Source: Novosphingobium sp.
GTDB taxonomy: Bacteria > Pseudomonadota > Alphaproteobacteria > Sphingomonadales > Sphingomonadaceae
Direction of reading: 5' to 3'
DNA length: 64,000 bases
Assembly: GCA_031422595.1 (NCBI GenBank)
Contig: JANPMA010000299.1
Span: 3,003 to 67,002, forward strand
Every line of letters begins with the position of its first letter. The stretch's first letter is position 1. This document shows, in pieces, positions 8,257 to 32,362 of this stretch. Below the pieces are notes generated by a model. The model searched no databases, was not told where the DNA came from, and saw only the letters and a program-made list of their open reading frames with translations. The translations under genes and the position numbers were made by a program.

Positions 8257-8323
8257 CATCGCAAGTGGCCATTTGTTGACGTGTGGGGTCGCAACCACGG
8301 GTTCTAAAGTGAAGGAAGCGGCT

Positions 8324-13591: not shown

Positions 13592-13595
13592 ACCA

Positions 13596-15192: not shown

Positions 15193-17637
15193 GTGCCAGA
15201 TCGGGTGCGCATCGCCATCGTCGGGTCAGGGCCGGCAGGGCTGAGTGCAGCAGCGCGCGCGGCTCAGCTTGGGCTGACCCACGTGCTCCTCGAGAAGACC
15301 AAGCACCTCTCCGACACGATCTTCAAATACCAGAAGGGCAAGCATGTCATGGCGACGCCCGCCGCGCTGGTGCTGCGCTCGGACCTGCCGTTCGATGCCG
15401 GCCGGCGCGAGATGATACTGGGCGGCTGGGAAGAGCAGTCTGCAGCGCACGGGGTCAACGTGCAATACGATGCCGAAGTGCAGAGCATCGCTGGCGAAGC
15501 AGGCAATTTTGCCATCACGCTCAAGAGCGGCGCGGAAGTGCTGGCCGAGACTGTGATCCTGGCCATCGGCACCCAGGGCAATCCCAATCTCGTCCGCTGC
15601 CCGGTAGGGGAAGACTCGGTGGTCCAGTACCAGCTCGACGATCCCGCCGAATACAACGACGAGCACATTTTCGTGATCGGCGGCGGCGATGCCGGGATTG
15701 AAAATGCACTGGGGCTTGCCGCCGACCCGGCGCAGGGCAACGTGGTCAGCCTGGTAAATCGCTCGGCCGACTTCGCCACCGCGAAAGACGCCAACGTCAA
15801 GGCGCTGATGGCCGCCCGCGATGCCGGACGGATCACGCTCTACGTCGAGACCACGACCGCGCGGATCGATCAGGGCGAAGTTGCACTCGATACCCGCGAC
15901 GGTGAGGTTATCGTGCGCTGCGACCGGGTGATCGCGCGGATGGGTTCGGCCCCGCCACGCGCTTTTGTCGAAGCTTGCGGGATTGCATTTACCGGACCCG
16001 ACCGGCTGGCGCTGCCAGCGCTTTCGCCCTCGTTCGAGACCTCGGTGCCCGGGATTCATGTGATCGGCGCGCTGGCCGGCTATCCGCTGATCAAGCATTG
16101 CATGAACCAGGGCTACGATGTGGTCGAGTTCATCAACGGCAACCGCGACCTGAAGCCCGCCGACGAGCCGATCCTTGCCGCGAAATTCGCTGCGCTTCCC
16201 GGTCAGCGCTCGGTCGATGAGTGGCTGAACCTGTTCGGCAGTCAGATCGAAGTGTTCCGCGAGGTCTCACCGCTCCAGCTGCGCGAGTTGATGCTCGATA
16301 GCACCGCGCGCTGTTTCGCTCCGGGCGAGGCGCTGTTCGTGCGCAATGATACCGGATCGTCGCTCTTCGCCTTGGCCGAGGGTTCAGTGCTGGTCGAGGT
16401 CGACAAAGACGATCCCGCCAAGGTCGTCCCGATCGCCCAAGGTGAAATCGTTGGCGAGGTCGGGCTGATCTCCGGGCGCCGGCGCGGGGCGACTGTGCGC
16501 GCCGACGGGCCAGTAGTCGCGGTCGAGCTGTCACGGACCGCAGCGCTCAAGCTGATCGCCACCGTGCCGGCGGCCGGGCGAGCCATTATGCGCGTGTCGA
16601 TCGAGCGCCAGCTTCTCCAGTTGTTCGGCTCGGGCCTTACGCGCGAGGATGTCGCAGAAGTGGTCGAACTGGCCGAAGTGCAAACCATCAAGGCTGGCGA
16701 GGTTGTCCTCACCGAAGGCGAAACCGGGACCGACATCTACGTCATCCGGCGCGGCTCGATGATCGTTGAAAAGAGCATCGGCGGCAAACAAGTGTTCCTC
16801 AATTACCTGCCCGCCGGGAGTTACGTCGGTGAAATGGCGCTGCTTGACGGTACCCCGCGGGTTGCAACGGTTAAGGCAGCGGTCCGGTCCGAGGTGATCC
16901 GCCTGCCCGGTGAGGCCTTTGCTCGGCTACTGACGCGCAAACCCGAATTGCGCCGCAAGGCGCTGGCCGACATGGCGACACGGCGCGACATCAATGCCTT
17001 TATCGAAGGCCGCAAGGACCAGTTTTCCGGCTCGGTCGATATGTACTCCGAAACCGCCCAGTTCCTGGTCGACAATGGTCTGGGCGAAGCGACCGATGTG
17101 CTGCTGATCGACGAAACCCTGTGCATCGGCTGCGACAATTGCGAAAAGGCCTGCGCCGACAGCCATGATGGACTGACCCGGCTCGACCGCGAAGCCGGGC
17201 GGACATACGCCCATCTCCACGTGCCGACCTCGTGCCGTCACTGTGAACACCCGCACTGCATGGCCGACTGTCCGCCCAACGCGATCAAGCGCGGCCCCGA
17301 TGGTGAGGTGGTGATCGATGACACCTGCATCGGTTGCGGCAATTGCCAGCGCAACTGCCCTTACGGTGTAATCCGGATGGACAGCGTCCCGCCGCCCAAG
17401 CCGCCGCTGCTCAGTTGGTTGCTGTTCGGGGCCGGTCCGGGGCCGGGCGAGCCGAGCTATGCGTGGCGCAAGAAGAACGCGCAGGGCACCGAGCAGCCCA
17501 AGAAGGCGATCAAGTGCGACATGTGCTCGGGGATTGAAGGTGGCCCGGCCTGCGTGCGCGCCTGCCCGACCGGCGCGGCGATCCGCGTCGCGCCCGAGGC
17601 CTTCCTTTCGGTCGCCCGGTTGGCGAAGGACGATTGA
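15193..17637 (+). CDS. Fusion oxidoreductase: TrxR-like NAD(P)H flavoprotein + 2 cyclic-nucleotide-binding domains + DmsB/NrfC-type four-cluster [4Fe-4S] module
   Basis: Dinucleotide motifs IVGSGPAG and VIGGGDAG are present, but I saw no CxxC redox disulfide in the flavoprotein part. The cNMP phosphate-binding cassettes are GEVGLISGRRRGATVRA and GEMALLDGTPRVATVKA. The Cys motifs are CIGCDNCEKAC, CRHCEHPHCMADCP, CIGCGNCQRNCP and CDMCSG..ACVRACP. Confidence 0.85.
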   Translation: MPDRVRIAIVGSGPAGLSAAARAAQLGLTHVLLEKTKHLSDTIFKYQKGKHVMATPAALVLRSDLPFDAGRREMILGGWEEQSAAHGVNVQYDAEVQSIAGEAGNFAITLKSGAEVLAETVILAIGTQGNPNLVRCPVGEDSVVQYQLDDPAEYNDEHIFVIGGGDAGIENALGLAADPAQGNVVSLVNRSADFATAKDANVKALMAARDAGRITLYVETTTARIDQGEVALDTRDGEVIVRCDRVIARMGSAPPRAFVEACGIAFTGPDRLALPALSPSFETSVPGIHVIGALAGYPLIKHCMNQGYDVVEFINGNRDLKPADEPILAAKFAALPGQRSVDEWLNLFGSQIEVFREVSPLQLRELMLDSTARCFAPGEALFVRNDTGSSLFALAEGSVLVEVDKDDPAKVVPIAQGEIVGEVGLISGRRRGATVRADGPVVAVELSRTAALKLIATVPAAGRAIMRVSIERQLLQLFGSGLTREDVAEVVELAEVQTIKAGEVVLTEGETGTDIYVIRRGSMIVEKSIGGKQVFLNYLPAGSYVGEMALLDGTPRVATVKAAVRSEVIRLPGEAFARLLTRKPELRRKALADMATRRDINAFIEGRKDQFSGSVDMYSETAQFLVDNGLGEATDVLLIDETLCIGCDNCEKACADSHDGLTRLDREAGRTYAHLHVPTSCRHCEHPHCMADCPPNAIKRGPDGEVVIDDTCIGCGNCQRNCPYGVIRMDSVPPPKPPLLSWLLFGAGPGPGEPSYAWRKKNAQGTEQPKKAIKCDMCSGIEGGPACVRACPTGAAIRVAPEAFLSVARLAKDD

Positions 17638-18513
17638 ATGGCCAGCGCCCCGCGCCCGTCCCGACAAACTGCGCGCCAGCTTACGGCCGATCACGAGGGC
17701 TTCCTGCGTCACCGCAATTTCCGTTGGCTCAAGCACGCGGGCGCACTGTGCGTTGTCGCCATCCTTGCCTACACGCTGATCGATGTGTCGCCCCGCCCGA
17801 ACGGCGGGACCTGGCTGGGGTACACGCTCGGCACCGTCGGGCTCGTGCTGATCGTCTGGCTCTCGCTGCTGGGCGTGCGCAAACGGACAATGACGCGCGG
17901 TGCCTGGTCGCTCAAGGCCTGGACCTCGGCCCACGTCTATCTTGGTCTCGCGCTGATCGTGATTGCCACGCTGCATACCGGCTTTGAATTCGGCTGGAAC
18001 GTCCACACCCTGGGCTATGCGCTGATGCTGTTGGTGATCGCATCGGGCCTGTTCGGGGTCGTGGTCTATTCCGTGCTGCCCGCGGCGCTCAGCAATAATC
18101 GCGAGCAGATGACCCAGCCGCAGATGGTCGAAGCACTCAGCGCGGTCGACCGCCAGCTACAAAGCGCCGCGCAGCCGCTCGATCCGCACTGGGCCGGGCA
18201 GGTCCTCGCCGCGCTTGGGGAGGGAGCTTTTGCCGGCGGCCTGTGGAGCCGGCTTGCCGGAGGCAAGCACGGCAGTGCGACCCAGCAGGCGATCGCCGCG
18301 TTCGACCTTGCCAGCACAGAAGAAGCCGCCGATCCGGCACTGGTCCGGGTCGAAGCGCTGCTCCAGCGCCGTGCCGCGCAGCTCGCCCGGATGCGGCGGC
18401 ACATGCGCCTCAAAGCGCTGCTTGAGGTTTGGCTCTACGTCCATGTCCCTGCAACCTTCGCTCTGATCGCCGCCTTAACCGCGCATGTGATCAGCGTGTT
18501 CTACTATTGGTAG
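17638..18513 (+). CDS. Polytopic inner-membrane protein, possible b-type cytochrome / electron-transfer subunit
   Basis: The ATG directly follows the upstream stop (TGAATG). There are about 5 TM helices. His residues inside helices (SAHVYLGL..ATLHTGFEFGWNVH; YVHVPATF..LTAHVISV) make haem-b ligation plausible but unproven. Confidence 0.55.
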   Translation: MASAPRPSRQTARQLTADHEGFLRHRNFRWLKHAGALCVVAILAYTLIDVSPRPNGGTWLGYTLGTVGLVLIVWLSLLGVRKRTMTRGAWSLKAWTSAHVYLGLALIVIATLHTGFEFGWNVHTLGYALMLLVIASGLFGVVVYSVLPAALSNNREQMTQPQMVEALSAVDRQLQSAAQPLDPHWAGQVLAALGEGAFAGGLWSRLAGGKHGSATQQAIAAFDLASTEEAADPALVRVEALLQRRAAQLARMRRHMRLKALLEVWLYVHVPATFALIAALTAHVISVFYYW

Positions 18514-18528
18514 GGGCGGGGCAGGGGC

Positions 18529-20226
18529 ATGATCTTTCGGCTCAGAACCGTCGAGACCACCGCCCAGGGCCGCGAAATCGTGCGCGACCGCGACGTTACA
18601 GCGGAGCGGATCACCCTTGGCCGTTCGGCGGACAACACGCTGCACCTGCCCGATCTCGCGCTCGATCCGTACCACGCGGCAATCACGGCGAGCGGCGGCA
18701 GGATCGCCATCGAGGCCCTCGGGTCGCCGGACTTCACTCTCGATGGCCGGCAGGTCAGCGAGGGTACGATCGATCCGCAAGCCGGCGGCGAGCTGCGCTT
18801 TGGCAGCTATCGCATTGCAGTTTCCGAGGCCGAGGATGCAGCGGTTCTGCTCACGATCGGTCAGATCGCCGAGGCATCAGGCACTTCGGAGGAAAAGTCC
18901 GGTTTCTCGCTTGCCGGACGAATGCCGGGCAAGCGGGCAATGTCGTGGCTGCTTGCGCTGGCGATCCTCGCCGCCTTTCTTGTCCTGCCGATCGTCAGCC
19001 AGATGGCCCGCGATCCCGCCGCCAAACAGGGCGTGCTGGGCGACGCGGCGTGGAGTTCGGGTCCGCTTAGCCAGGCGCACCATCAGCTCGAAGGCAAATG
19101 CGAGGCCTGTCACGTCAAGCCGTTTGAAGCGGTGCGCGATACCGCTTGCCTGACCTGCCACAAGGATGTCCACGAGCATGCTGCGCCCACCCGACTGGCC
19201 AATGCCCGCGGGCCTGACGGCTTGGGCGATCGGTTGCAGTGGCAGATCGCGCATTTGTTTGGCAAACCCGGCCCCGGGGCCTGTTCGGATTGTCATTCCG
19301 AACACCAAGGCGCCGGGCGCATGCCGCCGCCGCAGCAAGCCTTTTGCGCCGACTGCCACGGCTCGCTCAAGGATCGCCTGCCCGACACCGCACTTGGCAA
19401 CGCCGCCGATTTCGGCAAGGTGCATCCCGAATTCCGCCCCGCGCTGGCGCTGACTGCGGGCAGCGACAGGTTGACCCGGGTCTCGCTCGCCGAACATCCG
19501 CGCGAGGCGAACGGGCTGACCTTCACCCATGACCAGCACCTCGATCCGCGCGGCGGGGTGGCCCAGATGGCGCTGCGGCTTGGCATGGGGAGCGGCGGAC
19601 TGGGCTGCGCCGCCTGTCACCACCCAACCGCCGACGGGGTCCGCTTCCTGCCGATCGACATGGAGCGTGACTGCGAGGGATGCCACAGCCTGGCCTATGA
19701 CAAGGTCGGCGGTACCTTCCGGCGTCTGAAACACGGCGATACCGACCAGATGATCGCAGATCTCTCGGTCGCGCCGCGCGCGTCCAGTCCAATCGTGACC
19801 GGACGGCGGCGGCCCGGCGACTATGCCAATGGCGGAACCTATTTCGCCCGCTTCACGCCGCCGGGCGGGGGGATCGGATCGGTCGCGCAGGCCCTGTCGC
19901 GCGACGGAATCTGCGGCGAATGCCACACCCCGCGATTGGCCGGCGGGCGTTTCTCGGTGGTGCCGGTGACCCAGACCACGCGTTATTTCAATCACGGCTG
20001 GTTCAACCATGCGGCGCACAAGGAGGAAAAGTGCACCAGTTGCCACGCCGCGGATCGTTCCAACTTGGCGACCGACCTGCTGCTCCCCGATCTCAAATCG
20101 TGCCGCAGCTGTCATTTGGGCGAGGAAGCCCCGCGCGCCAAGGTTCCCTCGACCTGCGCAATGTGTCACGATTATCATCTCAAGCCGCTGGCTCCGCGCG
20201 GGGTCGAACCGCGACGAAAGCGATGA
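18529..20226 (+). CDS. FHA-domain / single-TM / decahaem c-type cytochrome
   Basis: N-terminal FHA-like region (ITLGRSADNTLHLPDLALDPYHAAI). One TM (WLLALAILAAFLVLPIV). Ten CxxCH motifs follow: CEACH, CLTCH, CSDCH, CADCH, CAACH, CEGCH, CGECH, CTSCH, CRSCH and CAMCH. Confidence 0.85.
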   Translation: MIFRLRTVETTAQGREIVRDRDVTAERITLGRSADNTLHLPDLALDPYHAAITASGGRIAIEALGSPDFTLDGRQVSEGTIDPQAGGELRFGSYRIAVSEAEDAAVLLTIGQIAEASGTSEEKSGFSLAGRMPGKRAMSWLLALAILAAFLVLPIVSQMARDPAAKQGVLGDAAWSSGPLSQAHHQLEGKCEACHVKPFEAVRDTACLTCHKDVHEHAAPTRLANARGPDGLGDRLQWQIAHLFGKPGPGACSDCHSEHQGAGRMPPPQQAFCADCHGSLKDRLPDTALGNAADFGKVHPEFRPALALTAGSDRLTRVSLAEHPREANGLTFTHDQHLDPRGGVAQMALRLGMGSGGLGCAACHHPTADGVRFLPIDMERDCEGCHSLAYDKVGGTFRRLKHGDTDQMIADLSVAPRASSPIVTGRRRPGDYANGGTYFARFTPPGGGIGSVAQALSRDGICGECHTPRLAGGRFSVVPVTQTTRYFNHGWFNHAAHKEEKCTSCHAADRSNLATDLLLPDLKSCRSCHLGEEAPRAKVPSTCAMCHDYHLKPLAPRGVEPRRKR

Positions 20227-20242
20227 CAGAGGGGCTGTGCCG

Positions 20243-21100
20243 ATGCTGATCGCCCAGATTACCGATTGCCATATCGGCTTTTTCCGCAGCGACGTCGGCG
20301 GAGCCAATACGCGGCGATTGCGCGCCGCGCTCGACCGGCTGCGCGATGGCCCCAATCGCCCCGATCTGCTCCTGCTCTCGGGCGATCTCACCGAATTCGG
20401 CGATGCGGCGAGTTACGCACGGCTGGCGGCAATGCTGGCCGACCTGCCCTTCCCGGTTCACCTGATGGTCGGCAACCACGATGACCGCGATGCCCTGCGC
20501 GCGACCTTTCCGGGGACGCCATTGGACCGGGGCTTCGTGCAATATGTTCTGCCCCTGCTCGGTTTGCGCCTGATCGCGCTGGATACGCTCGAGCCGGGGC
20601 GCCACGGCGGCGCCTTCTGTGCTGAGCGGGCCAAGTGGCTGAACGACCAGTTTGATGCTGACCCGGCGACTCCGGTGGTGATCGCAATGCATCATCCGCC
20701 GCTCGCCTCCGGGCTCGACTGGCTCGACGGAGCTGAGGACGCGCCATGGATCGCCCGCTTCACCGAGGCAATCGCCGGACGCCCGCAAGTGCGCGCGATC
20801 CTTGCCGGACACCTGCACCGCACAATCCACGCCAGCGTTGCGGGCGTACCGCTGACGGTCTGCCCCTCAACCGCGCCGACTGTCGCGCTCAACCTGAACC
20901 CGATCGACCCCGAGCGGCCCGATGGCCGGGCGATGATCGTCGATGAACCCGCGGCATTTGGCTTGCACCGCTGGAACGGCGAACGGCTGATATCGCATTT
21001 CGAGAGCCTGTCCGCCGGGCATCCCTGGGCCGTGCTCGCCAGCTACGATGCGGGGATGCAGGAACTGGTGCGCCAGAACGTCCGCGAGCAGCGCGACTGA
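20243..21100 (+). CDS. Class III cyclic-nucleotide phosphodiesterase (CpdA/Icc-type metallophosphoesterase)
   Basis: Ordered motifs ITDCH, LSGDL, VGNHDD, AMHHPP and AGHLH correspond to D-x-H / GD / GNHD / H / GHxH. The gene comes last in the plus-strand operon. GTG at 20237 is an alternative start. Confidence 0.8.
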   Translation: MLIAQITDCHIGFFRSDVGGANTRRLRAALDRLRDGPNRPDLLLLSGDLTEFGDAASYARLAAMLADLPFPVHLMVGNHDDRDALRATFPGTPLDRGFVQYVLPLLGLRLIALDTLEPGRHGGAFCAERAKWLNDQFDADPATPVVIAMHHPPLASGLDWLDGAEDAPWIARFTEAIAGRPQVRAILAGHLHRTIHASVAGVPLTVCPSTAPTVALNLNPIDPERPDGRAMIVDEPAAFGLHRWNGERLISHFESLSAGHPWAVLASYDAGMQELVRQNVREQRD

Positions 21101-21110
21101 TCTGCGATCC

Positions 21111-24100
21111 TCATCGCCCCGCGCGCCAGGCGCTCATTTCCCCATTGTCGTTGACTCTGTAGAGCAAGCCGCTCCGGTTCAGGAACAACCGCTCCATCTC
21201 GGGCCGGGTGAAGGGGCGGGAGCCAAGCCGGCCGAACACCGCGATCTGCCCGCCGGTTTCATCCACCGCGCGGTCGCGGTCGAGGCCCTTTGACATGGCA
21301 ATGGCCGGAGAAGGGGTCTTCGCCCAAGCGATCAACTCGGGCATCGGCGCGGGCGAAAAGCCGTAGAAGTTGCGCTGGCTTTCCGGCGAGGTCAGCTGCA
21401 GCACTTTCATCCCGTTGCGGCCGTCGGCGACGTAAGCGATCAGCGAGGCATTGGTCGAGGCGACCACCACGTCCTCGGCATCGTTTAGCTGCCCGTCGAA
21501 AGTCACCTTCTGGTAGATTCGTGGGCTACGTGGACGCGTAACATCGACGATCACCAAGCCATCCGCCTTGGCCGCGACATAGGCATAAGTCCGTGCAACA
21601 TAGACCCGCCGCGCATCGGCAAGCGGCACCGTCGCCTCGGGCACCGCCAGCGGTTTTCGCAAGTCAGTCACGTCGAACAACTTGAGCCCGTCGCGGTCGG
21701 TGACCCACAGGTAACGGAATTGCAGCGCAGAGGCGCGCGCGTCGACCAGTTCGCGCACCGCAGCGAGCCGGGGTTTGAGCGGATCGGACAGATCGACGAC
21801 GACCAGACCCTTGGTGGCGGTGATGTAGGCCACCTCACCCGCCAGCACGATATGCCGCGCCCCGTTCAGCACGCCGTCGGGGTTCCAGGTCACCGCGCGG
21901 TGCAGCTTGTTGTTGCGGAATTCACCGTCGGAGAAAGTGTCCACATCGACCAGGATCAACCCTTCGACGCTGTCGGTGATGGCCGCGTAGTTGTAGATCG
22001 GCAGGAACGGCTGCTCCTGGTTGACGTCGCGCATCATCTGGGTGTTGCGTTCAGGCGCGATCGGCTGGTTGGTCGGCAGCGCCATGCAGGTCGCGTCAGC
22101 GGTATCGACCTGGGCATCGCCGGCAAACGGGGCCGAGATGATCGGATCGGCAAAACCCTTGTTGGCAATTGCCGCGACGTCATAGACGTGGAAGCCGCCC
22201 TTACCCTGCGCGACAAACATGTATTCGCCGCGCAGTTGCAGGCACCCGACCTTGTCCGGCGTGCCTTGCACGACGTTGCGGAACTGTTCGACCGGATGAC
22301 TGTCCCCCCCGCCAAGCGAAGCGGTGGTCTTGCCGCGTGTCCAGTTCTTGAGCTCGCGGCTGTTCTGCTCAACGTGCATCCGATAATAATCGGGATAGGC
22401 GTAGCGTTGCAGGTAGGACCCGATCACCGCCTGCGGTTCGTCCCATTCGGTCACCCGCACCGCCTCGAGTCCGCCATCGAGCCCGGTCCAGGCATTGAGC
22501 CCGACGAAGTTGACGTAGTTGGTCCCGAGCAACAGCGTCTGTGCCATGATTGCATTGTTGTCCTCGTTCATGCTGACGTGGCAATCGCTGCAAGTCTTGG
22601 TCTCCTGCGTGCGGACAGTGTGCGCAAAATGCGGTGCGAAGGCCTGGCTTGAAAAGCCCGGCGAGCTGATTGGCGGTTGTTGGGCGTAGATGCGCTCGCG
22701 GCTGCTGTTGGTTGAAGACAGAATAAGCGCAGAAGACGATCTGACCGGCGACACCAGGCCGCCCTTGGTGGTCATGTGCTTGCCTAGTTGGAACATGTCG
22801 TCGCGCGCCACTTGCGGGTTGTAGGTCGCAAAATTGCGCGTTTCCTCCCCCTCGAAACGGTTCACCGAGCTTTTCCAGTTGGCCTCGATCGGCAAGTGGC
22901 ATCCGCCGCAACTGGTGGTCCAGGCAAGGTGACACGAGAAGCAGGCGATCTTGTCGTCCTGGTGCGCACGATCTGCTTTGGGCACACCGGGTCCGAAGCC
23001 GAAACTGCCATCATCCGCCCCCGACCGGCTCATCAGCTTGGCGCGCGCCGACTTGTGGTTGAAATAGGGCGATGCCGGATCGACGCTGTCCTTGGTCAGA
23101 TGCACCTGCCACGACAGGCCCGGATCGACGATCGAACGCTGGATCAGCACCCTTCGGCCAAACTCGTTGTTGACCCATTCAAACCGGCGCTGACCATCCG
23201 GGTTGCGGAGCAAGGCCAGATTGTTGCCTTTGGGCGGTGCGGCAGGCCCCGAGGTCAGCAGCTTGGGATAGGCTTCGGCGGTGCCGTGACAATCAGCGCA
23301 GCCGATCTCCACCGCATTTGCGACTTCGCCGTAGATCAGCCCGTTGCCATGGCTGTCCTGCGCAAAGTGGCAATCGGCGCATTGCATGCCCTTCTCGGCG
23401 TGGATGTCCATCAGGTGTACGGTCTTGCCCGGGTTGACCCCTGGTTGAACGAATTTCCCCTGCCCCTGGGTGCGCCATTTCTCGGGATCGTCGGGTGCGA
23501 CAATATGCGCCTTGTCGGTCCCCCAAGTTGCCATCGAGCCTCCCGCATCGAGCAGGTTTCCGGCCCGGTCGCGCTTGAACACGCCACGGAAATTCCAGCC
23601 GTGGCTGTGATAGTCGGCAAATTGGGTATCCTTGAGACCGGCATTGAGATCGTAAACGTTGCGCAGAAAATCGAGATCGCCCCACAGGCCGCTTGCGGCT
23701 GCACCTTCGGGGTTGCGTTCGTTGATCGAGCGGATCGTCGCAGCATCCGGATAGCGCTGATGCTTGTACAGGCGCTCATAATCCGCATCGCTCATCCCCG
23801 GCGGGCGCGGACTACGGTTTTCGGGGCCTGGCCACATCGAGGACGCGTCGGCCTCATAATCCCACATCGTATAGCCAAGGAACGAATTCACGAACACGTT
23901 GGGCTGATGCATATGGCAACTCATGCACTGTGCAGTCGGGATCGCGCGGGTGAAGACGTGGCCGAGCGGATGCCCGGATTCCTTGTCCGAGCCGGCATCC
24001 GACGATCCATGATCACCTTTGAGCCGGCCGTGATTACCGGTCTTGCTGGTGATGGTCGGATCGACGGTCACGCTCTGTCCGTCGCGCCCAAATTGCGCAT

Positions 24101-25157
24101 AGATCGAGCTGTGGCGCGGTTCACGGTCGTTGGCGTAGATCACATGGCAGCCCGAGCAGCCCGATCCGCGATAGTCGCCGGGCTGGTCGTTGGTCCCCAT
24201 GAACCACATGAAAGGATCGTTGAGCCTGGTCTTGTGGATGTTGAGCACCGGGATGGCGACCCTGAGGCCGGTCCCGGGACCGCGGTTCGATTGTTTGAGA
24301 TCCGGGCGTCCCGGTTCTTCCAGCCGCTGGATTGATCCAGTCGGATTGGGCAAGCCGACCTCGGCAAAGCCGGTGCCATTGTTGCGCCCCCCGTCCTCGA
24401 ACACCCGGAACACGTCACCCGGGGGCACTACATTCCAGCGCGGCAAGGGATAGAGCGCAGCCAGCGCCCCGCGCGCCGCCTGACGCTTGCTCAGCGTTCC
24501 AGGCGCAACCACCTTGGCCGGCTTGCCGTCGCGGGTATAGGCTTCGCCGAAGACGTAGTTCTTGAGCGGGACGATCCCGTTGTTATAGGCCGCGCCGCCC
24601 CACAGCATCGCCCCGCTCGACATCAGCGAGCGCTCGGCCGCTTCGATTGTCGGTAAATGACACGCACCGCAAGCTTCGCGGGCGACTCGGTAATCGCCCG
24701 GATTGACGAACCGGATAAACTCCGGCGCCTCGCGATTGAGCAGTGAATAGCTGCGTTGCGGGTTGGCGGATGAAGGGAAATGCCAAGCCCCGGGATATTG
24801 CGGCAGCACATGCGCGCGGTCACGCATCGCGGTGTAGGTGGAGTCATCGCGCGGCAGCGAGGGATTTCCGAGAATGCTTGCATCGCCGCCATGGCAGTCG
24901 GTGCAGCCCAGTCGCACCGCGGGCGATACGTGCATGGTCGGGGCTTCGGTCTTGACGTGGCACGACTGGCAGCCATCGGTCTTGGCAGCTGCCTGCTGTT
25001 CGGTTTGCTTTGCCGGGGCCGGTGGAGCCGTCACCAGCGCGTAGTTACGGACAATCTGCTTCTCACCCTCACTGGCCCGGATGCCGGAGGAATGGAGCAA
25101 GACGGCCATGGCGCAGGTCAATGTGGCAAGAGCCAGCAGGGCGCGCTGTATCGGCAT
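21111..25157 (-). CDS. Secreted decahaem c-type cytochrome fused to a C-terminal LVIVD-repeat beta-propeller
   Basis: 1348 aa with a signal peptide (LALATLTCAMAVLL). Ten CxxCH motifs: CQSCH, CTDCH, CGACH, CSGCH, CMSCH, CADCH x2, CFSCH, CGGCH and CSDCH. The last ~450 aa carry about six LVIVD-type repeats (GLILVDVD, GLVVVDLSDP, GLKLFDVTDL, GLVIVDVTRP, GMKVLQLTSP). Confidence 0.85.
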   Translation of the reverse strand: MPIQRALLALATLTCAMAVLLHSSGIRASEGEKQIVRNYALVTAPPAPAKQTEQQAAAKTDGCQSCHVKTEAPTMHVSPAVRLGCTDCHGGDASILGNPSLPRDDSTYTAMRDRAHVLPQYPGAWHFPSSANPQRSYSLLNREAPEFIRFVNPGDYRVAREACGACHLPTIEAAERSLMSSGAMLWGGAAYNNGIVPLKNYVFGEAYTRDGKPAKVVAPGTLSKRQAARGALAALYPLPRWNVVPPGDVFRVFEDGGRNNGTGFAEVGLPNPTGSIQRLEEPGRPDLKQSNRGPGTGLRVAIPVLNIHKTRLNDPFMWFMGTNDQPGDYRGSGCSGCHVIYANDREPRHSSIYAQFGRDGQSVTVDPTITSKTGNHGRLKGDHGSSDAGSDKESGHPLGHVFTRAIPTAQCMSCHMHQPNVFVNSFLGYTMWDYEADASSMWPGPENRSPRPPGMSDADYERLYKHQRYPDAATIRSINERNPEGAAASGLWGDLDFLRNVYDLNAGLKDTQFADYHSHGWNFRGVFKRDRAGNLLDAGGSMATWGTDKAHIVAPDDPEKWRTQGQGKFVQPGVNPGKTVHLMDIHAEKGMQCADCHFAQDSHGNGLIYGEVANAVEIGCADCHGTAEAYPKLLTSGPAAPPKGNNLALLRNPDGQRRFEWVNNEFGRRVLIQRSIVDPGLSWQVHLTKDSVDPASPYFNHKSARAKLMSRSGADDGSFGFGPGVPKADRAHQDDKIACFSCHLAWTTSCGGCHLPIEANWKSSVNRFEGEETRNFATYNPQVARDDMFQLGKHMTTKGGLVSPVRSSSALILSSTNSSRERIYAQQPPISSPGFSSQAFAPHFAHTVRTQETKTCSDCHVSMNEDNNAIMAQTLLLGTNYVNFVGLNAWTGLDGGLEAVRVTEWDEPQAVIGSYLQRYAYPDYYRMHVEQNSRELKNWTRGKTTASLGGGDSHPVEQFRNVVQGTPDKVGCLQLRGEYMFVAQGKGGFHVYDVAAIANKGFADPIISAPFAGDAQVDTADATCMALPTNQPIAPERNTQMMRDVNQEQPFLPIYNYAAITDSVEGLILVDVDTFSDGEFRNNKLHRAVTWNPDGVLNGARHIVLAGEVAYITATKGLVVVDLSDPLKPRLAAVRELVDARASALQFRYLWVTDRDGLKLFDVTDLRKPLAVPEATVPLADARRVYVARTYAYVAAKADGLVIVDVTRPRSPRIYQKVTFDGQLNDAEDVVVASTNASLIAYVADGRNGMKVLQLTSPESQRNFYGFSPAPMPELIAWAKTPSPAIAMSKGLDRDRAVDETGGQIAVFGRLGSRPFTRPEMERLFLNRSGLLYRVNDNGEMSAWRAGR

Positions 25158-27046
25158 CAGAAGGAGAATACCGTGTTGAGCAGCACTGAATAGTACCTGT
25201 TGTGGCGCTGCGCATTGTCGAACAGATCCTGAAACCCGCTGCCGGGGAGCAGCGCCGCAGCTGAGAGTCGCACGACGATGTTCTGCGTCGCTTTGGGCCG
25301 CCAGATCGTCGAGAGCGACAGGTCCCAGCCGATATCTCTTGGAATGCTGCCCTCATTCCGCAGATCCTGCAGCGTTGCGGTGTTGGCGAACCAAAGATGA
25401 TTTGCATTGACCGAGAGACGATAGGTCGGCCTCAGGTCGAAATCGCCGCCCAGCCCGACCAGCACCGTTCCGGGACTGTTGAAATTCGACTGGCCCTGTT
25501 CTTTGGACGAGCGCAGCGAATTGAGCACGCCATTGCGCCCGTTAAGCGCGACCGCCCGGCCGCCGCCGGCAAAGGGAATTGTCTGGCGAATCCAGTAAGA
25601 GGTGTCCGCCCCGGCAAAAACCGGGTTCTCGAACACTGCGTCGAAACCGCCTTCGGTGTTGTCACGCGGGCTACCGTCACCGCTGGCATAGAGTGCCGAG
25701 AGGCGGAAGCGTTTCCAGTCCTTGTCGTACGACAGCTCGCCTGCTGCAAACCCTGCCTGGATCTTGGCCCGGCTGCCGGTGAAGAAGCTGTTCCGATCCT
25801 GCCCCAGCGCGAGATAGGTCGATCCGGTAAAGCCGAAGCGGCCAATCCGGCCGTCGGTGTTGTAGCCGAGATAGACCACATCGTAATCGCGTCCGCGCAG
25901 CGTGCCCAGCAATGCGGGCCGCACCGGGAACCCGTTGTCGTCGACCTTGATCCGGCCACCTTCGCGATTGCGGTTGTAAATCACGGTCAGCTGGCTGGTC
26001 AGCGCGGGAAGCGGAAAATCCTGGCGATAGAGATTGGCAACGAACACCCAGTCATTGCGCGGGCGCTCGGTCACGTTGTTGAGCCCCGAATTGGTGTCCT
26101 TCTCCAGCCGCCAGAAAGCAGCGAGGTTGTATTGCCAGCGGTTGCCGTCGCGGTTGCCGAAGAAGCGCACACCAAGTTGATTATCGTTGAACAGAAAGCC
26201 GCGAAAATCGGACTGGAATGGCTGAATTCCAACCCGCACCGAATCGAAATCATAGCGCACCGAGACGTTGCGCAGGTGGTAGTCGACGAACAATTCCTGG
26301 AGGCCGACGAAGTGGTCGGCGCGGTGGCTCGGTTTCGAGGGATCGACCGACAGCACCCTCCGCTCAGGCACGTCGACGTAGTTGAAATTGAACCCCAGCG
26401 CGATCCGGTATTCGATTTCGGGCGGCTTGAATGCGGTGTTGCCCTTGGTCAGCGAAGCCCCGACCAGGAAAGTCTGCGAAAAGACATAGCTCGCACCCTT
26501 GCCGAACACATCGAGGCTACCGGGTCGCTCGGTGGTCTGGACGCCGACCGGGATCGGGAACGTGCGCGGCTCGAGCACCGTGTCCGAGACCAGACTAAGC
26601 GTCAGAAACCAGTCATCCCCCTTCAGAAATCCGGGCCGCTTGCCCTCGGACAAAGGCAGATCGCCCTTGAGCAGGTTCTGGTGAAAGGGATCACGCTTCG
26701 AATGGCAGACCTGACGCAGATTTGGATAGAGCCTGAGCAGCGACTGGTCGGCCCCCTTGGCCGGGCACAAGCCGGTCATGATCCGCCAACGATCGGGCAC
26801 GGGAATCTGATCTGTCGGGAAAGCCTCGGGTGGAGGCGCTCGCACCGCGCCGGGGTTATCCTGCGAAACCGGCTCGGGCAAGCTGCGCTCGAAGCCCGGT
26901 CGGCGGCGGCCTTCGATCACCTGAGGGTCGACTTCCGGCGGACTTGCAACGTCGGAATCGGCGACAGGTGGCGACGGTGGAGGGGGCGGTCCCGGATTCG
27001 CCGCCTGGGCCAGCAGCAGCGGCAGCAAAAGCGCGCCCGCCCCCAT
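25157..27046 (-). CDS. Outer-membrane beta-barrel protein with a Pro-rich N-terminal linker (candidate porin partner of the cytochromes)
   Basis: 629 aa. A signal peptide is followed by NPGPPPPPSPP... The body is rich in G/Y/N/D/F/R and has an alternating-strand character. It ends ...LLNTVFSF, a C-terminal Phe OMP signature. Its start and stop codons overlap both neighbours by 1 nt. Confidence 0.65.
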   Translation of the reverse strand: MGAGALLLPLLLAQAANPGPPPPPSPPVADSDVASPPEVDPQVIEGRRRPGFERSLPEPVSQDNPGAVRAPPPEAFPTDQIPVPDRWRIMTGLCPAKGADQSLLRLYPNLRQVCHSKRDPFHQNLLKGDLPLSEGKRPGFLKGDDWFLTLSLVSDTVLEPRTFPIPVGVQTTERPGSLDVFGKGASYVFSQTFLVGASLTKGNTAFKPPEIEYRIALGFNFNYVDVPERRVLSVDPSKPSHRADHFVGLQELFVDYHLRNVSVRYDFDSVRVGIQPFQSDFRGFLFNDNQLGVRFFGNRDGNRWQYNLAAFWRLEKDTNSGLNNVTERPRNDWVFVANLYRQDFPLPALTSQLTVIYNRNREGGRIKVDDNGFPVRPALLGTLRGRDYDVVYLGYNTDGRIGRFGFTGSTYLALGQDRNSFFTGSRAKIQAGFAAGELSYDKDWKRFRLSALYASGDGSPRDNTEGGFDAVFENPVFAGADTSYWIRQTIPFAGGGRAVALNGRNGVLNSLRSSKEQGQSNFNSPGTVLVGLGGDFDLRPTYRLSVNANHLWFANTATLQDLRNEGSIPRDIGWDLSLSTIWRPKATQNIVVRLSAAALLPGSGFQDLFDNAQRHNRYYSVLLNTVFSF

Positions 27047-29028
27047 TACAAGCCTTGGCAGACATTCTGCGCGTCGCTGCCGATAAACGGCGCGAAGGGA
27101 CAGCTGACATAGCGCAGCCGCGCCGACGCGCCGCCACCAAGGTCGAAGACAAGCGTATCGGCGCGAACCGCTGCAGGCGCATTGCCGAGCGTGCCCAATG
27201 CGGTGGCAGCGTTGTTCAGCCCCAGGAACGCAATCATGTCATCCTGATCGATACCGTCTCCCGAAACCCCAATCGCCCCGATCAGCTTGTTCCCTCGATA
27301 GACTGGCACTCCGCCGGCAAAGATCTGTATTCCGTTCTGCAAGCGATTTTGGCCGGGCGTTGCATCGGGAATGAAGCTGCACCGTGCCGGGGTATCGATG
27401 CCGCTCGCACCGGCGACATAGTTCAGGTGCTGGCCCAGGTTGGACAGCACCAGCGCGGATTGCAGCCCGGTCGAGAACGGGCTCCACTTCGCAATCGGGC
27501 GCGACAGGGGTCCGTTGGGACGCGCGACCTCGCCATCGGGAAAATACGGCCGTGACAGGTTACCCATCGCGCGGGCAGACAGCGCCAACTGCCCGGTAAG
27601 CGCGGCCGGATCGGCGAAGAAGCTGCGCATCGCAGGAACGAAGCTGCGCACATCGGGGCTGGGATCGGCCAGCAGCTGCGCGGCGGCGTTGGGATTGGTG
27701 AAGAAGGCCGCCGTGCGCGCCTTCTGCAACGACACGTCGATTCCAAACACGGGTGCATCGGGTGAGCGGACCAGCCCCAATGGCACACCGCGTGTGTCGA
27801 CGAGCGCAATGGTCACTTGCGCCCGGCTGTCGAGCGGCTGCCGGATCTGGGCTCGGGCATGGGCCATCGTGCTGAATGCCTGCTCGAGAATGCGTTGCGA
27901 TTCGAGTGCACTGATCGGCGTGCCGACTTCGGCGCCGTCACTGCCCGCGCGCAGCGGAAAGCGGTTGATGCCCGAGCCGTCGCTCAGGACGAACGCATCG
28001 CCGGTGGTAAACTCGGCAGCGGTCGCCGGGCGCACCCCGGATGCTTCGCTGCCATATGCTGCGCCAGACAGGACCGCCGCGACAGGGTAATAGCCGGTCA
28101 CCGGGGTCAACCCACCCAATGCCGGAACGGTAGCGGCATAGGTCGCCCCGGCCAGATTGGTCAGGTTGGCATAATCGGTGTCGGTATAACGCAGCAAAGT
28201 GCCGTCGACCGAAATCCGGTTCGCGCGCACATCGACTGGCGCTTCAAACCCGACGGTGCCGGCCAGACCACTGCGCTCGTCGGTGTCGCTGTCGACATCG
28301 AGCACATTCGGGTCAAAGCCATAAACTCCATCGCCCGAAACGCCGACCCCGCCGACGACCACCCCGTTCTTGTACAGCGGGAAGCCGCCTGGATCGGCCG
28401 AAAGCCCCAGCGGCGAGCGCTTTGGTCCGATCATGTTGGCCGGACCGGGTGCCAGCCTCGCGGCGAGGTCGGAACAGGGCAATTGGCTGAATTGTACCCC
28501 GAACAACGGGCCGCTCTCCAGCCCGACGGTCGAGGGTGCAGGCGGAAAGCGCTGCTGCACGATCATGCTTGCGGTGCGCGTGGAAAAAGCGTTGCCGCTG
28601 CTCGAAAGGTAAGCCCCGGTGATCGCCTTGGCGATCGCGGCGGCTTCGGCCGGCACGTTCAGGCCCTGGATGTCCTGCTGTGAACCATCCATCGCTTTCG
28701 GTATCGCGGCGAGAGCAGGAGCACCCGTCATACGCAGCATGGCGAGCACATTGCCGACCCGGTCAGTTACCGCGATCACTGCCGGACGGTTGTCCGCATG
28801 CGCCTGCGCAGCGGCCTCAGCCAAGACCTTTTGCACGTCCGCAACCGAAAGCGATTCCGCAGCCGGAGCGGTATAGAATGATCCCGCCGTCGGGGGCGGA
28901 GATGGAGAAGGAGTCGGGGTAACACCGCCGCCCCCGCCCGAGCCGCCGCTGGCCCCTCCACCGCCGCCACAAGCAGCAAGGTTGAGCAAGGCAATCCAGC
29001 CCAGAATCTGCGCCGCAAGCTTCTTCAT
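27046..29028 (-). CDS. Lipoprotein with two GlcG/HbpS-type (DUF336) putative haem/corrinoid-binding domains
   Basis: Lipobox LNLAAC is followed by a Gly/Ser/Pro linker. Domain 1 is around PAVIAVTDRVGNVLAM. Domain 2 is IALVDTRGVPLGLV...FAGGVPVYRGNKLIGAIGVSGDGIDQDDMIA, the canonical DUF336 C-terminal motif. Confidence 0.75.
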   Translation of the reverse strand: MKKLAAQILGWIALLNLAACGGGGGASGGSGGGGGVTPTPSPSPPPTAGSFYTAPAAESLSVADVQKVLAEAAAQAHADNRPAVIAVTDRVGNVLAMLRMTGAPALAAIPKAMDGSQQDIQGLNVPAEAAAIAKAITGAYLSSSGNAFSTRTASMIVQQRFPPAPSTVGLESGPLFGVQFSQLPCSDLAARLAPGPANMIGPKRSPLGLSADPGGFPLYKNGVVVGGVGVSGDGVYGFDPNVLDVDSDTDERSGLAGTVGFEAPVDVRANRISVDGTLLRYTDTDYANLTNLAGATYAATVPALGGLTPVTGYYPVAAVLSGAAYGSEASGVRPATAAEFTTGDAFVLSDGSGINRFPLRAGSDGAEVGTPISALESQRILEQAFSTMAHARAQIRQPLDSRAQVTIALVDTRGVPLGLVRSPDAPVFGIDVSLQKARTAAFFTNPNAAAQLLADPSPDVRSFVPAMRSFFADPAALTGQLALSARAMGNLSRPYFPDGEVARPNGPLSRPIAKWSPFSTGLQSALVLSNLGQHLNYVAGASGIDTPARCSFIPDATPGQNRLQNGIQIFAGGVPVYRGNKLIGAIGVSGDGIDQDDMIAFLGLNNAATALGTLGNAPAAVRADTLVFDLGGGASARLRYVSCPFAPFIGSDAQNVCQGL

Positions 29029-30380
29029 CGCAGCGCACCGATCGCATTGACAGCTTGCCGCAGCGCTGCCCGAAAAGCACCCGGATCATATTCTGCAGGA
29101 CTCGCTACGGCGGCGTAGGCACGGTTGATGCTGGCGCGAATCCCGGCTGCGGCGCCGACCGTGACCCGGCCCTCGCGGACCAGCAGGTTGAGCAGCGTAT
29201 CAACTGCCATCACCGACTGGGCCGACCCGGCGTAGTCGGTGAAGCGAACCGAGATTGCCCGCCCCCCGATCGCTGCGATGACCTGGAAAGCAGTATCGCT
29301 ACCGCCCGGCCCGCGCGCAACCGCGTCTCCGAGCGCACTTGCCGCTGCAACCAGCCGGCCCGCTGCAGCCACCGCCTCCGGGCGCCCTTTTTCCATCGCG
29401 GCGTGGAAATTGCGGGCGGCTGCATCGAACTGCGCGGCTTCGCGCGGCGCCAGAACCTGGGCCACGGCCGAGAGCATGATGATGTTCTCATCGTTGAAAG
29501 GCGGTTGACCGAATGGGATCGGCCGAGCCGGATTTGTCTCAAACGTCCGCGCCCGCTGCGGATTGTCGTCGATCCCGCGATGGCAGCTGTGGCAATCGTA
29601 AAAGGTGAATTCCGGGAATATCCCGTTGCTGGCCAGGTCTGACTGCCGAAACAAGCTGAGCGAGCGCTGTACTGCCTCGGCCTGTCCCACCGCCCACAGC
29701 CGGACGCTGTCGTTCGAGGGCTTACGCGCGGTGTAGTCGGCGTCCACGTCCCAATGCTGTTGCAGCGAGGAGAACAGGTCGAGTTCGAACGAAAGCCGGG
29801 GATGTCCCGCTGCCATCATCGCATGCGTTACGAACTGGCCAGGCTTGCCGCTGCCCAAATGGCAATCGAGACAAACCGCAGCGCGCACCTTGGGGTTGTC
29901 GAGCGCGCTCATGCCGCCAGCCACGTTGCCAGCATGGCTCGCCCCAACCGCATAGTGACTGGCAATCCAGCCCGATGCCGGGCCGTGGCAGCCTTCGCAG
30001 CCCACCCCGTCGGAAATCAGGAAGCGGTCGCCGCGCGCGCCTGCCGGGGTGGCATGGCAACCGAGGCAAGCCGCCGCCGAGCCGGCCCGGCCAAGCCCCA
30101 GAGTGCTTGCGATCCGTTCACCGCGCAGCGATACAAGCGCCGCGTAGGTACGGCTGTGTGCGCCGCCCCGCGACGCGGGTTCCTGCCACAACCTGAGTTC
30201 ATCCTGGCGGACAACCTTGCCATCACCATCAGCACGGCCGTGGCAGGTCGAACCGGCGCAGTTGGCGACGCCTTCATAGCGGCCGGAAGCGAGGGCTGCT
30301 CCAGTTGCCGCGCCGGCAAGCGCAGCCATGCCAAGCAGCGCAGCCAGCCTGCGACGAACGGCAGTTCCGAAAGTCGGCAT
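29025..30380 (-). CDS. Secreted multihaem c-type cytochrome (c554 / multihaem family-like)
   Basis: I chose the ATG at 30380 because GGAGGG lies 4 nt upstream. Signal peptide is LAALLGMAALAGAATGAALA. Motifs are CLGCH, CEGCH, CLDCH and CHSCH plus a CAGSTCH (Cx4CH) site. The stop overlaps the next start (ATGA). Confidence 0.8.
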   Translation of the reverse strand: MPTFGTAVRRRLAALLGMAALAGAATGAALASGRYEGVANCAGSTCHGRADGDGKVVRQDELRLWQEPASRGGAHSRTYAALVSLRGERIASTLGLGRAGSAAACLGCHATPAGARGDRFLISDGVGCEGCHGPASGWIASHYAVGASHAGNVAGGMSALDNPKVRAAVCLDCHLGSGKPGQFVTHAMMAAGHPRLSFELDLFSSLQQHWDVDADYTARKPSNDSVRLWAVGQAEAVQRSLSLFRQSDLASNGIFPEFTFYDCHSCHRGIDDNPQRARTFETNPARPIPFGQPPFNDENIIMLSAVAQVLAPREAAQFDAAARNFHAAMEKGRPEAVAAAGRLVAAASALGDAVARGPGGSDTAFQVIAAIGGRAISVRFTDYAGSAQSVMAVDTLLNLLVREGRVTVGAAAGIRASINRAYAAVASPAEYDPGAFRAALRQAVNAIGALR

Positions 30381-30491
30381 GTTGCCCTCCAACCGGTCGC
30401 CAGTCTGGCATGCCGGGCCGGTCGGAGCAAGCATGTCGTCGCGGCTTTGCCCCGTTGCCACCCTGCCCGGTGCAGCCCATAGTCACTTGCG

Positions 30492-32348: not shown

Positions 32349-32362
32349 CCACAGATCGGAGT

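Follow-up and report, generated by a model that had tools for sequence, protein, structure and literature searches.

The 64,000-nucleotide (nt) stretch analyzed here, referred to below as the window, comes from a Novosphingobium sp. assembly (GCA_031422595.1, contig JANPMA010000299.1, positions 3,003 to 67,002) and has a G+C content of 64.6%. It encodes a large multihaem cytochrome joined to a beta-propeller, g1348, which is the subject of this work together with the genes that surround it. A first-pass annotation, made from the sequence alone, described this open reading frame (ORF) as a decahaem cytochrome with LVIVD repeats; that description stands, and we add that the gene lies on the minus strand, which the annotation had not stated. 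The gene and its two main parts are as follows.

21111..25157, minus strand: g1348, a single ORF with an ATG start, 1348 aa; signal peptide, decahaem domain and LVIVD beta-propeller
22578..24971, minus strand: ten haem-binding motifs of g1348, aa 63-860, from a CxxCH search of the sequence
21357..22241, minus strand: six LVIVD units of g1348, the propeller core, aa 973-1267, from an iterated repeat hidden Markov model (HMM), AlphaFold2 and Foldseek

The N-terminus of g1348, MPIQRALLALATLTCAMAVLLHSSGIRA/SE, reads as a Sec signal peptide. A canonical lipobox was not found in the protein; the single Cys of the signal region, Cys15, has the context ...TLTC, and the family consensus does not retain it. 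Nearly all remaining Cys usage is devoted to haem attachment, with 20 of the 23 Cys residues falling within CxxCH motifs. These motifs start at residues 63, 85, 163, 334, 411, 593, 620, 739, 750, and 856, so that ten are observed where 0.011 would be expected by chance from the composition of the protein. They span ~800 residues (63-860) inside the first ~880, a density of ~80-88 aa per haem, and this bears out the sparse spacing over about 880 residues that the first-pass annotation had pointed to. An alignment of 72 sequences drawn from several phyla shows at least 93% conservation for every one of the ten Cys pairs and for the motif His of nine of the ten haems, the exception being H67 of haem 1. 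Thirteen His residues outside the motifs also reach at least 93% (H76, H116, H349, H396, H400, H417, H519, H581, H586, H603, H732, H846, and H928), which is enough to provide a second axial His for each of the ten haems. All ten are probably bis-His ligated; an open-site catalytic haem may exist, although the sequence does not indicate one. The motif of haem 3 is CX4CH in 45 of the 72 aligned members and CxxCH in the sphingomonad group, and thus the LVIVD cytochrome family is uniformly decahaem.

Judged by its sequence, g1348 fits no characterized cytochrome family. It scores 11.9 bits against the MtrC/MtrF domain II/IV model PF22113 (cut-off 30) and 14.6 bits against the MtrA/DmsE model TIGR03508 (cut-off 192.2), and MtrA/DmsE membership is also defined by compact packing of ~30-35 aa per haem, as opposed to ~80-88 in g1348; the earlier remark that the haem domain is unlike the MtrA/MtrC decahaems is thus supported by scores below both cut-offs. 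The best named match of the haem domain among curated models is ExtM (NF040943), a cytochrome of a selenite/tellurite reduction operon, at 64.1 bits against a cut-off of 800, with the strongest stretch at residues 583-633, covering one dihaem motif. The NrfH, HmcA, and TmcA models give only trivial scores, and at E <= 1 no NrfA (Cytochrom_C552), HAO, MccA, or OTR model from Pfam or NCBIfam matches g1348. Moreover, the sequence contains no CxxCK motif and no MccA-type CX15CH; its sole CX11-17CH match is the adjacent CxxCH pair at 739-754. A phmmer search against PDB sequences returns only NrfA, through a short dihaem motif (E = 0.45), and a family profile returns the octahaem nitrite reductase TvNiR at a marginal E = 0.006 over two short collinear dihaem segments. 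AlphaFold2 was run on g1348 in two parts, residues 29-960 and 700-1348. The model of the first part is of moderate confidence, with a predicted local distance difference test (pLDDT) score of 65.8 and a predicted template modelling (pTM) score of 0.73, and a Foldseek search of this haem-free model against the PDB gives nothing below E = 6, a result that is uninformative, including for OmcS/OmcE/OmcZ, HAO, and MccA. Pfam, NCBIfam, and PDB sequence and profile searches therefore assign the haem part to no characterized reductase family, the assignment that the first-pass annotation had singled out as contradicting its view.

The C-terminal part was described earlier as a six-blade-like LVIVD propeller. 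Pfam LVIVD (PF08309) scores 56.4 bits on g1348 against a cut-off of 20.2 (E = 1.8e-15), reported as two stretches, and an iterated HMM of the family repeat resolves four strong units (1096-1134, 1136-1172, 1178-1218, and 1223-1267; E 1e-15 to 1e-22) and two weak ones (973-998, E = 0.85; 1055-1078, E = 0.003). The protein thus has the tandem ~40-aa units, predicted to form a propeller, by which the LVIVD family is recognized. The AlphaFold2 model of residues 700-1348, built on the same 72-sequence alignment, reaches a pLDDT of 81 and a pTM of 0.89, with block-mean pLDDT values of 94-98 across most of 1090-1250. Foldseek finds 902 PDB matches to it at E <= 0.001, the top ranks being nearly all beta-propellers, with BtuG (8bmx_D, 2e-8), AztD, WD40 domains, and BamB among the best. 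The six units and the propeller fold therefore hold, and the number of blades is probably seven: DSSP strand grouping in the model suggests that the six LVIVD units are joined by one degenerate C-terminal blade. No His or Cys in the propeller is conserved family-wide in the 72-sequence alignment, and a copper or cofactor site there is rejected on this ground; many polar residues are invariant, for example in GLDRDRAVDE(T/S)G(G/N)Q at 1291-1304. The first-pass annotation had further inferred that the propeller could be a substrate- or mineral-binding head, or a docking head, of an extracellular protein. Of this, the fold stands; the extracellular site does not follow from a Sec signal and no canonical lipobox, and substrate or mineral binding finds no evident cofactor or metal site.

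This architecture is widespread. A single-sequence search finds more than 7600 homologous proteins at E <= 1e-5, and the best 120 of them all measure 1293-1398 aa, carry LVIVD, and come from Novosphingobium, Sphingobium, Sphingomonas, Croceibacterium, and relatives, with no database names beyond "hypothetical," "LVIVD repeat-containing," and "multiheme c-type cytochrome." An exhaustive search of 50%-identity representatives yields 666 clusters below 1e-30. Drawn from the representatives of at least 900 aa in this search, 16 of at least 1171 aa and 36-55% identity retain 8-10 canonical CxxCH motifs, and their alignment with the query runs up to ~1326-1348, thus including the propeller. Beyond Alphaproteobacteria, a profile search finds the family in Acidobacteriota, Rokubacteria, Planctomycetota, Calditrichota, KSB1, and Wallbacteria, and all 120 of its listed matches are 1176-1442 aa long and carry LVIVD. 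The question raised earlier of whether cytochrome and propeller also occur as separate genes can thus be answered: they are fused in 240 of the 240 listed homologues and in the 16 distant representatives, making this an obligate fusion. No convincing split form was seen among the homologues, and the shorter representative matches look like contig-end fragments. Identity to g1348 is 62-85% across alphaproteobacterial orders (median 69%) and 36-50% across phyla, and g1348 is both the largest protein of its cluster and the most conserved except g814, an oxidoreductase described below. Two relatives have unusual haem numbers: P0134 (1648 aa), which belongs to the 16 distant representatives, reaches 28 CxxCH motifs through an N-terminal extension that precedes the aligned LVIVD decahaem unit and contributes 20, and P0206 (1284 aa) matches three family segments with only 2 CxxCH motifs and may be a haem-loss derivative. 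We came across no account of the LVIVD decahaem family, or of the gene module as a whole, in the searchable literature; the family is very large, deeply conserved, and apparently uncharacterized.

The most informative evidence on g1348 is its gene context, which was absent from the first-pass annotation: a four-gene operon, an adjacent operon for an NAD(P)H/iron-sulphur protein, a membrane protein, and an FHA-cytochrome, and a set of cyclic-nucleotide genes. Three genes precede g1348 in its own operon.

25157..27046, minus strand: g629, probable outer-membrane beta-barrel; signal peptide, Pro-rich linker, C-terminal ...VFSF
27046..29028, minus strand: g660, lipoprotein (lipobox LAAC, LAAC-GGGG) with two HbpS/GlcG-like (DUF336) domains; Pfam HbpS-like E = 7e-27, four stretches
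29025..30461, minus strand: g478, c554-like cytochrome; Pfam Cytochrome_C554 E = 2e-8; one CX4CH and four CxxCH

The order of transcription is g478, g660, g629, and finally g1348, and each stop overlaps the next start: g629 and g1348 share TGATG with a 1-nt overlap, as read directly from the sequence, and the ORF coordinates give an overlap of 1 nt between g660 and g629 and one of 4 nt between g478 and g660. The four genes are translationally coupled. A homologue of g629 lies directly upstream of the cytochrome in eight of eight loci from distant phyla; the six of these copies that were compared are 35-41% identical, and all 10 aligned homologues end in F or Y. The N-termini of the family vary, carrying a CarboxypepD_reg domain or, in locus L084, a tetrahaem c3 domain. 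There is no Pfam match to g629 itself, PDB sequence and profile searches of the barrel family came back empty, and weak Alginate_exp matches appear in 2 of 11 family members; nevertheless, its sequence features make it probably an outer-membrane beta-barrel. The lipoprotein g660 contains an internal duplication, and an HbpS-like gene is present in all eight distant loci. Its relatives in the PDB are EfgA, PduO-C, and a putative haem-binding protein; the ligands of HbpS/GlcG/DUF336 family members are haem or iron (HbpS, PduO-C) and formaldehyde (EfgA). The cytochrome g478 is probably pentahaem, with a CX4CH motif (CAGSTCH at aa 68-74) located N-terminal to its four CxxCH motifs and kept in three of the four distant homologues checked. 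Its real start is probably Met28 near 30380, not the GTG at 30461. The CX4CH spacing is the same unusual one seen at haem 3 in most LVIVD decahaem relatives.

On the other side of g1348, four genes on the plus strand converge on it.

15193..17637, plus strand: g814, cytoplasmic FAD/NAD(P)H oxidoreductase with two cNMP-binding domains and a 4x[4Fe-4S] ferredoxin domain; Pfam Pyr_redox_3, cNMP_binding x2, Fer4
17638..18513, plus strand: g291, ~5 transmembrane segments by hydropathy; candidate dihaem b-type transmembrane electron carrier
18529..20226, plus strand: g565, cytoplasmic FHA domain, one transmembrane helix, and periplasmic decahaem domain; Pfam FHA and c3/c7 families; ten CxxCH
20009..21100, plus strand: g363, class III cyclic-nucleotide phosphodiesterase, CpdA/SpdA-like; Pfam Metallophos

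The flavoprotein part of g814 is FNR/YpdA-like, the protein also has four Cys clusters of the [4Fe-4S] type, and on reading the sequence both cNMP domains have a canonical phosphate-binding cassette. A thioredoxin- or disulfide-reductase role for g814 is ruled out by the lack of CxxC in its flavoprotein part. The membrane protein g291 has no Pfam match; in its hydrophobic segments it carries two H-x13-H pairs, H99/H113 and H269/H283, that are 100% conserved in 49 sequences, including some from three other phyla. In NOX, FRE, and MsrQ-type proteins, two such H-x13-H pairs hold two b haems across the membrane. For g363, the NCBIfam models SpdA (E = 1.7e-45) and CpdA (E = 1.5e-19) both match below their cut-offs. 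Its longest ORF, from 20009, overlaps the end of g565, and the Metallophos domain begins at Met79 (MLIAQITDCH...), which places the real start probably near 20243.

Further genes for cytochrome maturation and cyclic-nucleotide signalling flank these two operons.

14131..15051, minus strand: g306, CcmH/CycH-type TPR protein; Pfam TPR_CcmH_CycH E = 4.5e-17
30492..32348, plus strand: g618, CHASE2 sensor with class III nucleotidyl cyclase, divergent from the operon; Pfam CHASE2 E = 4.9e-50, Guanylate_cyc E = 2.9e-28
33768..36008, plus strand: g746, second CHASE2-cyclase; Pfam

To examine how far this arrangement is conserved, we compared 80 alphaproteobacterial loci from GTDB species genomes (Sphingomonadales, Caulobacter, Brevundimonas, Phenylobacterium, and Rhizomicrobium) and eight loci from other phyla, judging synteny within 10-kb flanks. 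Among the alphaproteobacterial loci, g478, g660, and g629 accompany g1348 in 60 of the 61 with enough upstream flank, and g565, g291, and g814 are found together in 40 of the 55 with enough downstream flank. The gene for g306, a likely dedicated apocytochrome chaperone that may act as a maturation factor, is syntenic in 43 of 80, and a g746 homologue adjoins the cluster in several genomes (e.g., L004, L008, L019, L055, and L059). In the distant sample, the HbpS-like gene, the barrel, and the LVIVD cytochrome occur together in all eight loci and a c554-like cytochrome in six. A cNMP/Fer4 protein, a membrane protein of ~250-310 aa, and a multihaem cytochrome are present in five of the eight, with FHA in or beside the cytochrome in three of these five.

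An NAD(P)H-linked flavoprotein is found in six of the eight distant loci, and its type differs from locus to locus. L084 and L087 have an FNR-like Pyr_redox domain, and L088 has a NuoE/F-like protein (2Fe-2S + Complex1_51K + NADH_4Fe-4S), as does L085, where it is 8.5 kb away. In the acidobacterial locus L081 (4109-5515) it is SthA, the soluble Si-specific NAD(P)+ transhydrogenase, at 577.7 bits against a cut-off of 465, and in the planctomycete locus L083 (1-1077) the best match of a copy cut at its 5' end is also SthA, at 381.7 bits and below the cut-off. This pattern looks like non-orthologous replacement of the donor module. Since various NAD(P)H-handling flavoproteins recur, NAD(P)H is suggested as the cytoplasmic partner, most clearly by the NuoE/F-like protein beside the cNMP/Fer4 gene in L088. 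Domain fusions connect the same parts: on L084 (contig_2533), a tetrahaem c3 domain is fused N-terminally to the barrel (7612-9966), the cNMP/Fer4 part is fused to a g291-like membrane domain (17097-19679), and FHA, cytochrome, Fer4, and Pyr_redox are combined in one 1091-aa protein (19686-22961). A small secreted catalase-family gene follows the cytochrome in the acidobacterial contigs L081 and L082.

Other genes near the cluster in the window are an M48 (BepA-like) peptidase gene between the two CHASE2-cyclases (30492-36008) and a FecR-domain gene at 36018-37055 on the minus strand. A 188-aa ORF at 13563-14129 on the plus strand, between a glutamate dehydrogenase gene and the cluster, has a Pfam PycTM match (Pycsar effector protein; E = 1.2e-25). 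With synteny in L003, L008, and L031, it represents a further cyclic-nucleotide-related membrane protein near the cluster. A 1029-aa ORF at 8273-11362 on the plus strand has an N-terminal NAD_binding_8 Rossmann-like domain and a weak acetoacetate decarboxylase-like region and is otherwise unannotated.

Taken together, we give about an even chance to the reading that g1348 is the outer redox component of a conserved trans-envelope electron chain that is fed by NAD(P)H and gated by cyclic nucleotides. In such a chain, cytoplasmic NAD(P)H would reduce the FAD of g814, and electrons would then pass through its four [4Fe-4S] clusters and cross the inner membrane via two b haems on the H-x13-H pairs of g291. 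The periplasmic decahaem g565 and then the pentahaem g478 would be the next carriers, and the end point would be an outer-membrane assembly of the barrel g629, the HbpS-like lipoprotein g660, and g1348. There, the ten haems of g1348 would act as a terminal wire or reductase, and the LVIVD propeller may be a cofactor-less domain for binding or docking the acceptor, or for docking the barrel and lipoprotein. Gating would come from the CHASE2 cyclases, which would make a cyclic nucleotide to be sensed by the cNMP domains of g814 and removed by the phosphodiesterase g363, and the FHA domain of g565 could add phospho-threonine control. Candidate roles include assimilatory Fe(III)/Mn oxide reduction, reduction of humics or oxidants, and deliberate conversion of O2 to superoxide. 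The chain has no obvious coupling site, and since it would start from NAD(P)H and bypass the quinone pool, its purpose would probably be delivery of reducing power to the envelope or exterior and not energy conservation. From the observed sequence features, propeller fold, distribution, synteny, and domain fusions, we infer this mechanism, including which cofactors g291 and g660 hold, in what order and direction electrons move, where g1348 is located, and what the acceptor is. A more far-reaching version, which we consider doubtful, would make the cluster a modular bacterial counterpart of eukaryotic NADPH oxidases and ferric reductases, gated by a second messenger and extended across both membranes, with the LVIVD decahaem as the terminal enzyme at the cell surface.

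Several observations weigh against such an outward chain. Within 10 kb, the inner-membrane trio is missing from 3 of 8 distant and 15 of 55 alphaproteobacterial loci, indicating that outer and inner modules are separable. Near g1348, whose signal peptide is of the Sec type and which lacks a canonical lipobox, no secretion system is encoded. Inspection of both promoter regions by eye, short of a formal scan, showed no AT-rich Fur-box-like element. The barrel core measures ~530-550 aa, and its sole weak family hint is AlgE-type; such a barrel may lack the width to enclose a cytochrome and could serve as a substrate channel. The haem-domain model, at a pLDDT of 65.8, is only moderately confident. 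Moreover, very high conservation, low haem density, and many invariant polar residues in the propeller suit an enzyme with a defined small substrate no less well than they suit a mineral-binding wire.

This last point leads to the main rival, to which we assign a minor but real share of the probability: g1348 would be a periplasmic multihaem enzyme of the HAO, octahaem nitrite reductase, MccA, or OTR kind, acting on a small soluble nitrogen, sulphur, or other oxyanion or on an oxidant (H2O2), with the propeller in the active site or in oligomerization, the barrel as a substrate porin, and g478 and g565 as the electron supply. At ~80-88 aa per haem, g1348 is nearer to enzymes than to wires; its conservation, 62-85% across alphaproteobacterial orders and 36-50% across phyla, is extreme, and the only PDB sequence signals are the marginal ones to TvNiR (E = 0.006) and NrfA (E = 0.45). 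The catalase gene adjoining the cluster in two acidobacterial contigs and the barrel's sole weak match, to the substrate/polymer channel Alginate_exp, point the same way. However, CxxCK is absent, the CX11-17CH match is merely two adjacent CxxCH motifs, and the 13 conserved non-motif His suffice for ten six-coordinate haems. Nor do Pfam and NCBIfam models at E <= 1 give NrfA, HAO, MccA, or OTR, Foldseek gives no enzyme fold for the moderate-confidence, haem-free model, and the propeller is without conserved metal or cofactor ligands. A role as an Mtr/Pcc-type respiratory porin-cytochrome conduit, in which g1348 would be the surface terminal reductase for anaerobic Fe(III)/Mn(IV)/humics respiration from the quinol pool, seems improbable to us. 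The cluster contains no quinol dehydrogenase (CymA/NapC, NrfD, or bc-type), its inner-membrane partner being the NAD(P)H/iron-sulphur module, membership in the Mtr and DmsE families fails, and g1348 has no lipoprotein signal. The hosts are also mostly obligate aerobes, e.g., Sphingomonadales and Caulobacterales. Yet a probable outer-membrane barrel gene and multihaem cytochromes do share one operon, the haem count is ten, L084 has a barrel-tetrahaem cytochrome fusion, and porin-cytochrome clusters have recently been reported in Acidobacteriota (10.64898/2026.05.27.727921). A peat preprint on four acidobacterial/verrucomicrobial porin-cytochrome clusters makes no mention of a propeller, HbpS, or FHA, and these clusters could not be matched to the g1348 cluster.

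Electrons could also flow inward. In that case g1348 would oxidize Fe(II), Mn(II), reduced humics, a cathode-like mineral, or a similar donor outside the cell or in the periplasm. Multihaem chains can in principle run either way, and a trio of the same architecture (FHA-cytochrome, membrane protein, and 4Fe-4S protein) in an Fe(II) oxidizer has been suggested to connect outer-membrane Fe(II) oxidases with the inner membrane (10.64898/2026.01.22.701106). However, with NAD(P)+ at about -320 mV, its reduction by such donors would run uphill, and the cluster has no energy-coupling subunit. The partners conserved at these loci are NAD(P)H-oxidizing flavoproteins and SthA, and the hosts are mostly heterotrophs; we regard inward flow as very improbable. 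A module that serves mainly as a redox sensor, in which envelope cytochromes report the external redox state and the FHA and cNMP domains make a signal without bulk electron flux, would account for the density of signalling genes (two CHASE2 cyclases, a phosphodiesterase, two cNMP-binding domains, an FHA domain, and a PycTM-like gene). HbpS is likewise a redox-stress sensor component in Streptomyces (PMC3754957). Such a sensor would be very costly, at ~25 c-type haems, four iron-sulphur clusters, and a flavin, none of the redox proteins carries a fused transcription factor or kinase output domain, and the recurrent NAD(P)H-linked flavoproteins suggest real electron flux; we see little probability in it.

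Multihaem cytochrome conduits have, to our knowledge, been studied almost exclusively in anaerobic metal reducers and iron oxidizers, whereas the family described here has thousands of members and belongs to a fixed gene module of heterotrophs that are abundant in soil, fresh water, and the sea and are mostly aerobic. If the outward NAD(P)H-fed chain is real, delivering electrons to the exterior or the periplasm would count as a mainstream trait of aerobes, with a flux fed by NAD(P)H instead of quinol, and we know of no earlier multihaem electron chain under the control of cyclic nucleotides and FHA signalling. Candidate genes for reductive iron/manganese acquisition and extracellular reactive-oxygen production would be a further gain. 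Should the doubtful NADPH-oxidase-like version prove true, aerobic Sphingomonadales, Caulobacterales, Acidobacteriota, and Planctomycetota would gain regulated extracellular superoxide or reductive dissolution of Fe(III)/Mn oxides, and the unexplained NAD(P)H-dependent extracellular superoxide of heterotrophic bacteria would have a candidate enzyme. The family can be tested in culturable, tractable Novosphingobium, Sphingobium, Sphingopyxis, and Caulobacter.

Among known systems, MtrCAB and the Geobacter Pcc/Ext conduits resemble the g1348 cluster in encoding multihaem cytochromes with an outer-membrane barrel, here a probable one, in the ten haems of MtrA/MtrC, and in presumed electron transfer across the envelope. 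In contrast, g1348 falls outside their families, has a fused propeller, ~80-88 aa per haem, no lipobox, and an HbpS-like lipoprotein partner, and its cluster would be fed by an NAD(P)H/iron-sulphur/putative dihaem-b module and not by a quinol dehydrogenase, in hosts that are mostly aerobes. With TvNiR, NrfA, and HAO, g1348 shares low haem density, large non-haem inserts, and the marginal collinear similarity at two dihaem motifs (E = 0.006), but it has no CxxCK or other catalytic-haem signature and no Pfam/NCBIfam or Foldseek match, and it combines ten haems with a propeller. Joining a c-type cytochrome domain covalently to a beta-propeller is itself known from periplasmic redox proteins such as cd1 nitrite reductase, quinohaemoprotein alcohol dehydrogenases, and hydrazine synthase alpha. 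These have one or two haems, and their propellers either carry haem d1 or PQQ with Ca as a cofactor or build an active site from conserved ligands. The domain pairing is thus shared, and g1348 differs by its ten haems and by having no conserved propeller His/Cys or recognizable cofactor motif. The NOX, FRE/FRO, and MsrQ proteins, of the ferric-reductase-domain family, offer an analogous logic, from NAD(P)H through flavin and two b haems to an outside acceptor, and g291 has the same H-x13-H spacing. Here, however, the likeness is one of spacing, g291 being without a Pfam match, and in g814-g291 the flavin, iron-sulphur, and membrane parts are separate proteins, cNMP-binding domains sit on the flavoprotein, and the chain would lead onward to ~25 c-type haems.

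Two further systems are related by arrangement. In D. ferrophilus, the separate six- or seven-bladed propeller genes DFE_0451/0452/0463, of unknown function, lie in extracellular electron-transfer islands with large secreted multihaem cytochromes (PMC8322314). We liken them to the g1348 family by association; the propellers there are separate genes, and the LVIVD propeller here is fused in all the full-length members studied. In Ferrigenium straubiae, an FHA-nonahaem cytochrome, a 5-transmembrane protein, and a [4Fe-4S] protein were called novel and of unknown function in 2026, by authors aware of no earlier combination of FHA with a multihaem cytochrome (10.64898/2026.01.22.701106). Compared by architecture, this trio is the same three-protein set as g565, g291, and g814, but no LVIVD cytochrome, barrel, or HbpS-like partner is reported there, and the proposed flow is inward from Fe(II) oxidases. 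Set beside all these systems, the gene context of g1348 supports a new variant of trans-envelope electron transfer, one that would be fed by NAD(P)H and gated by signalling.

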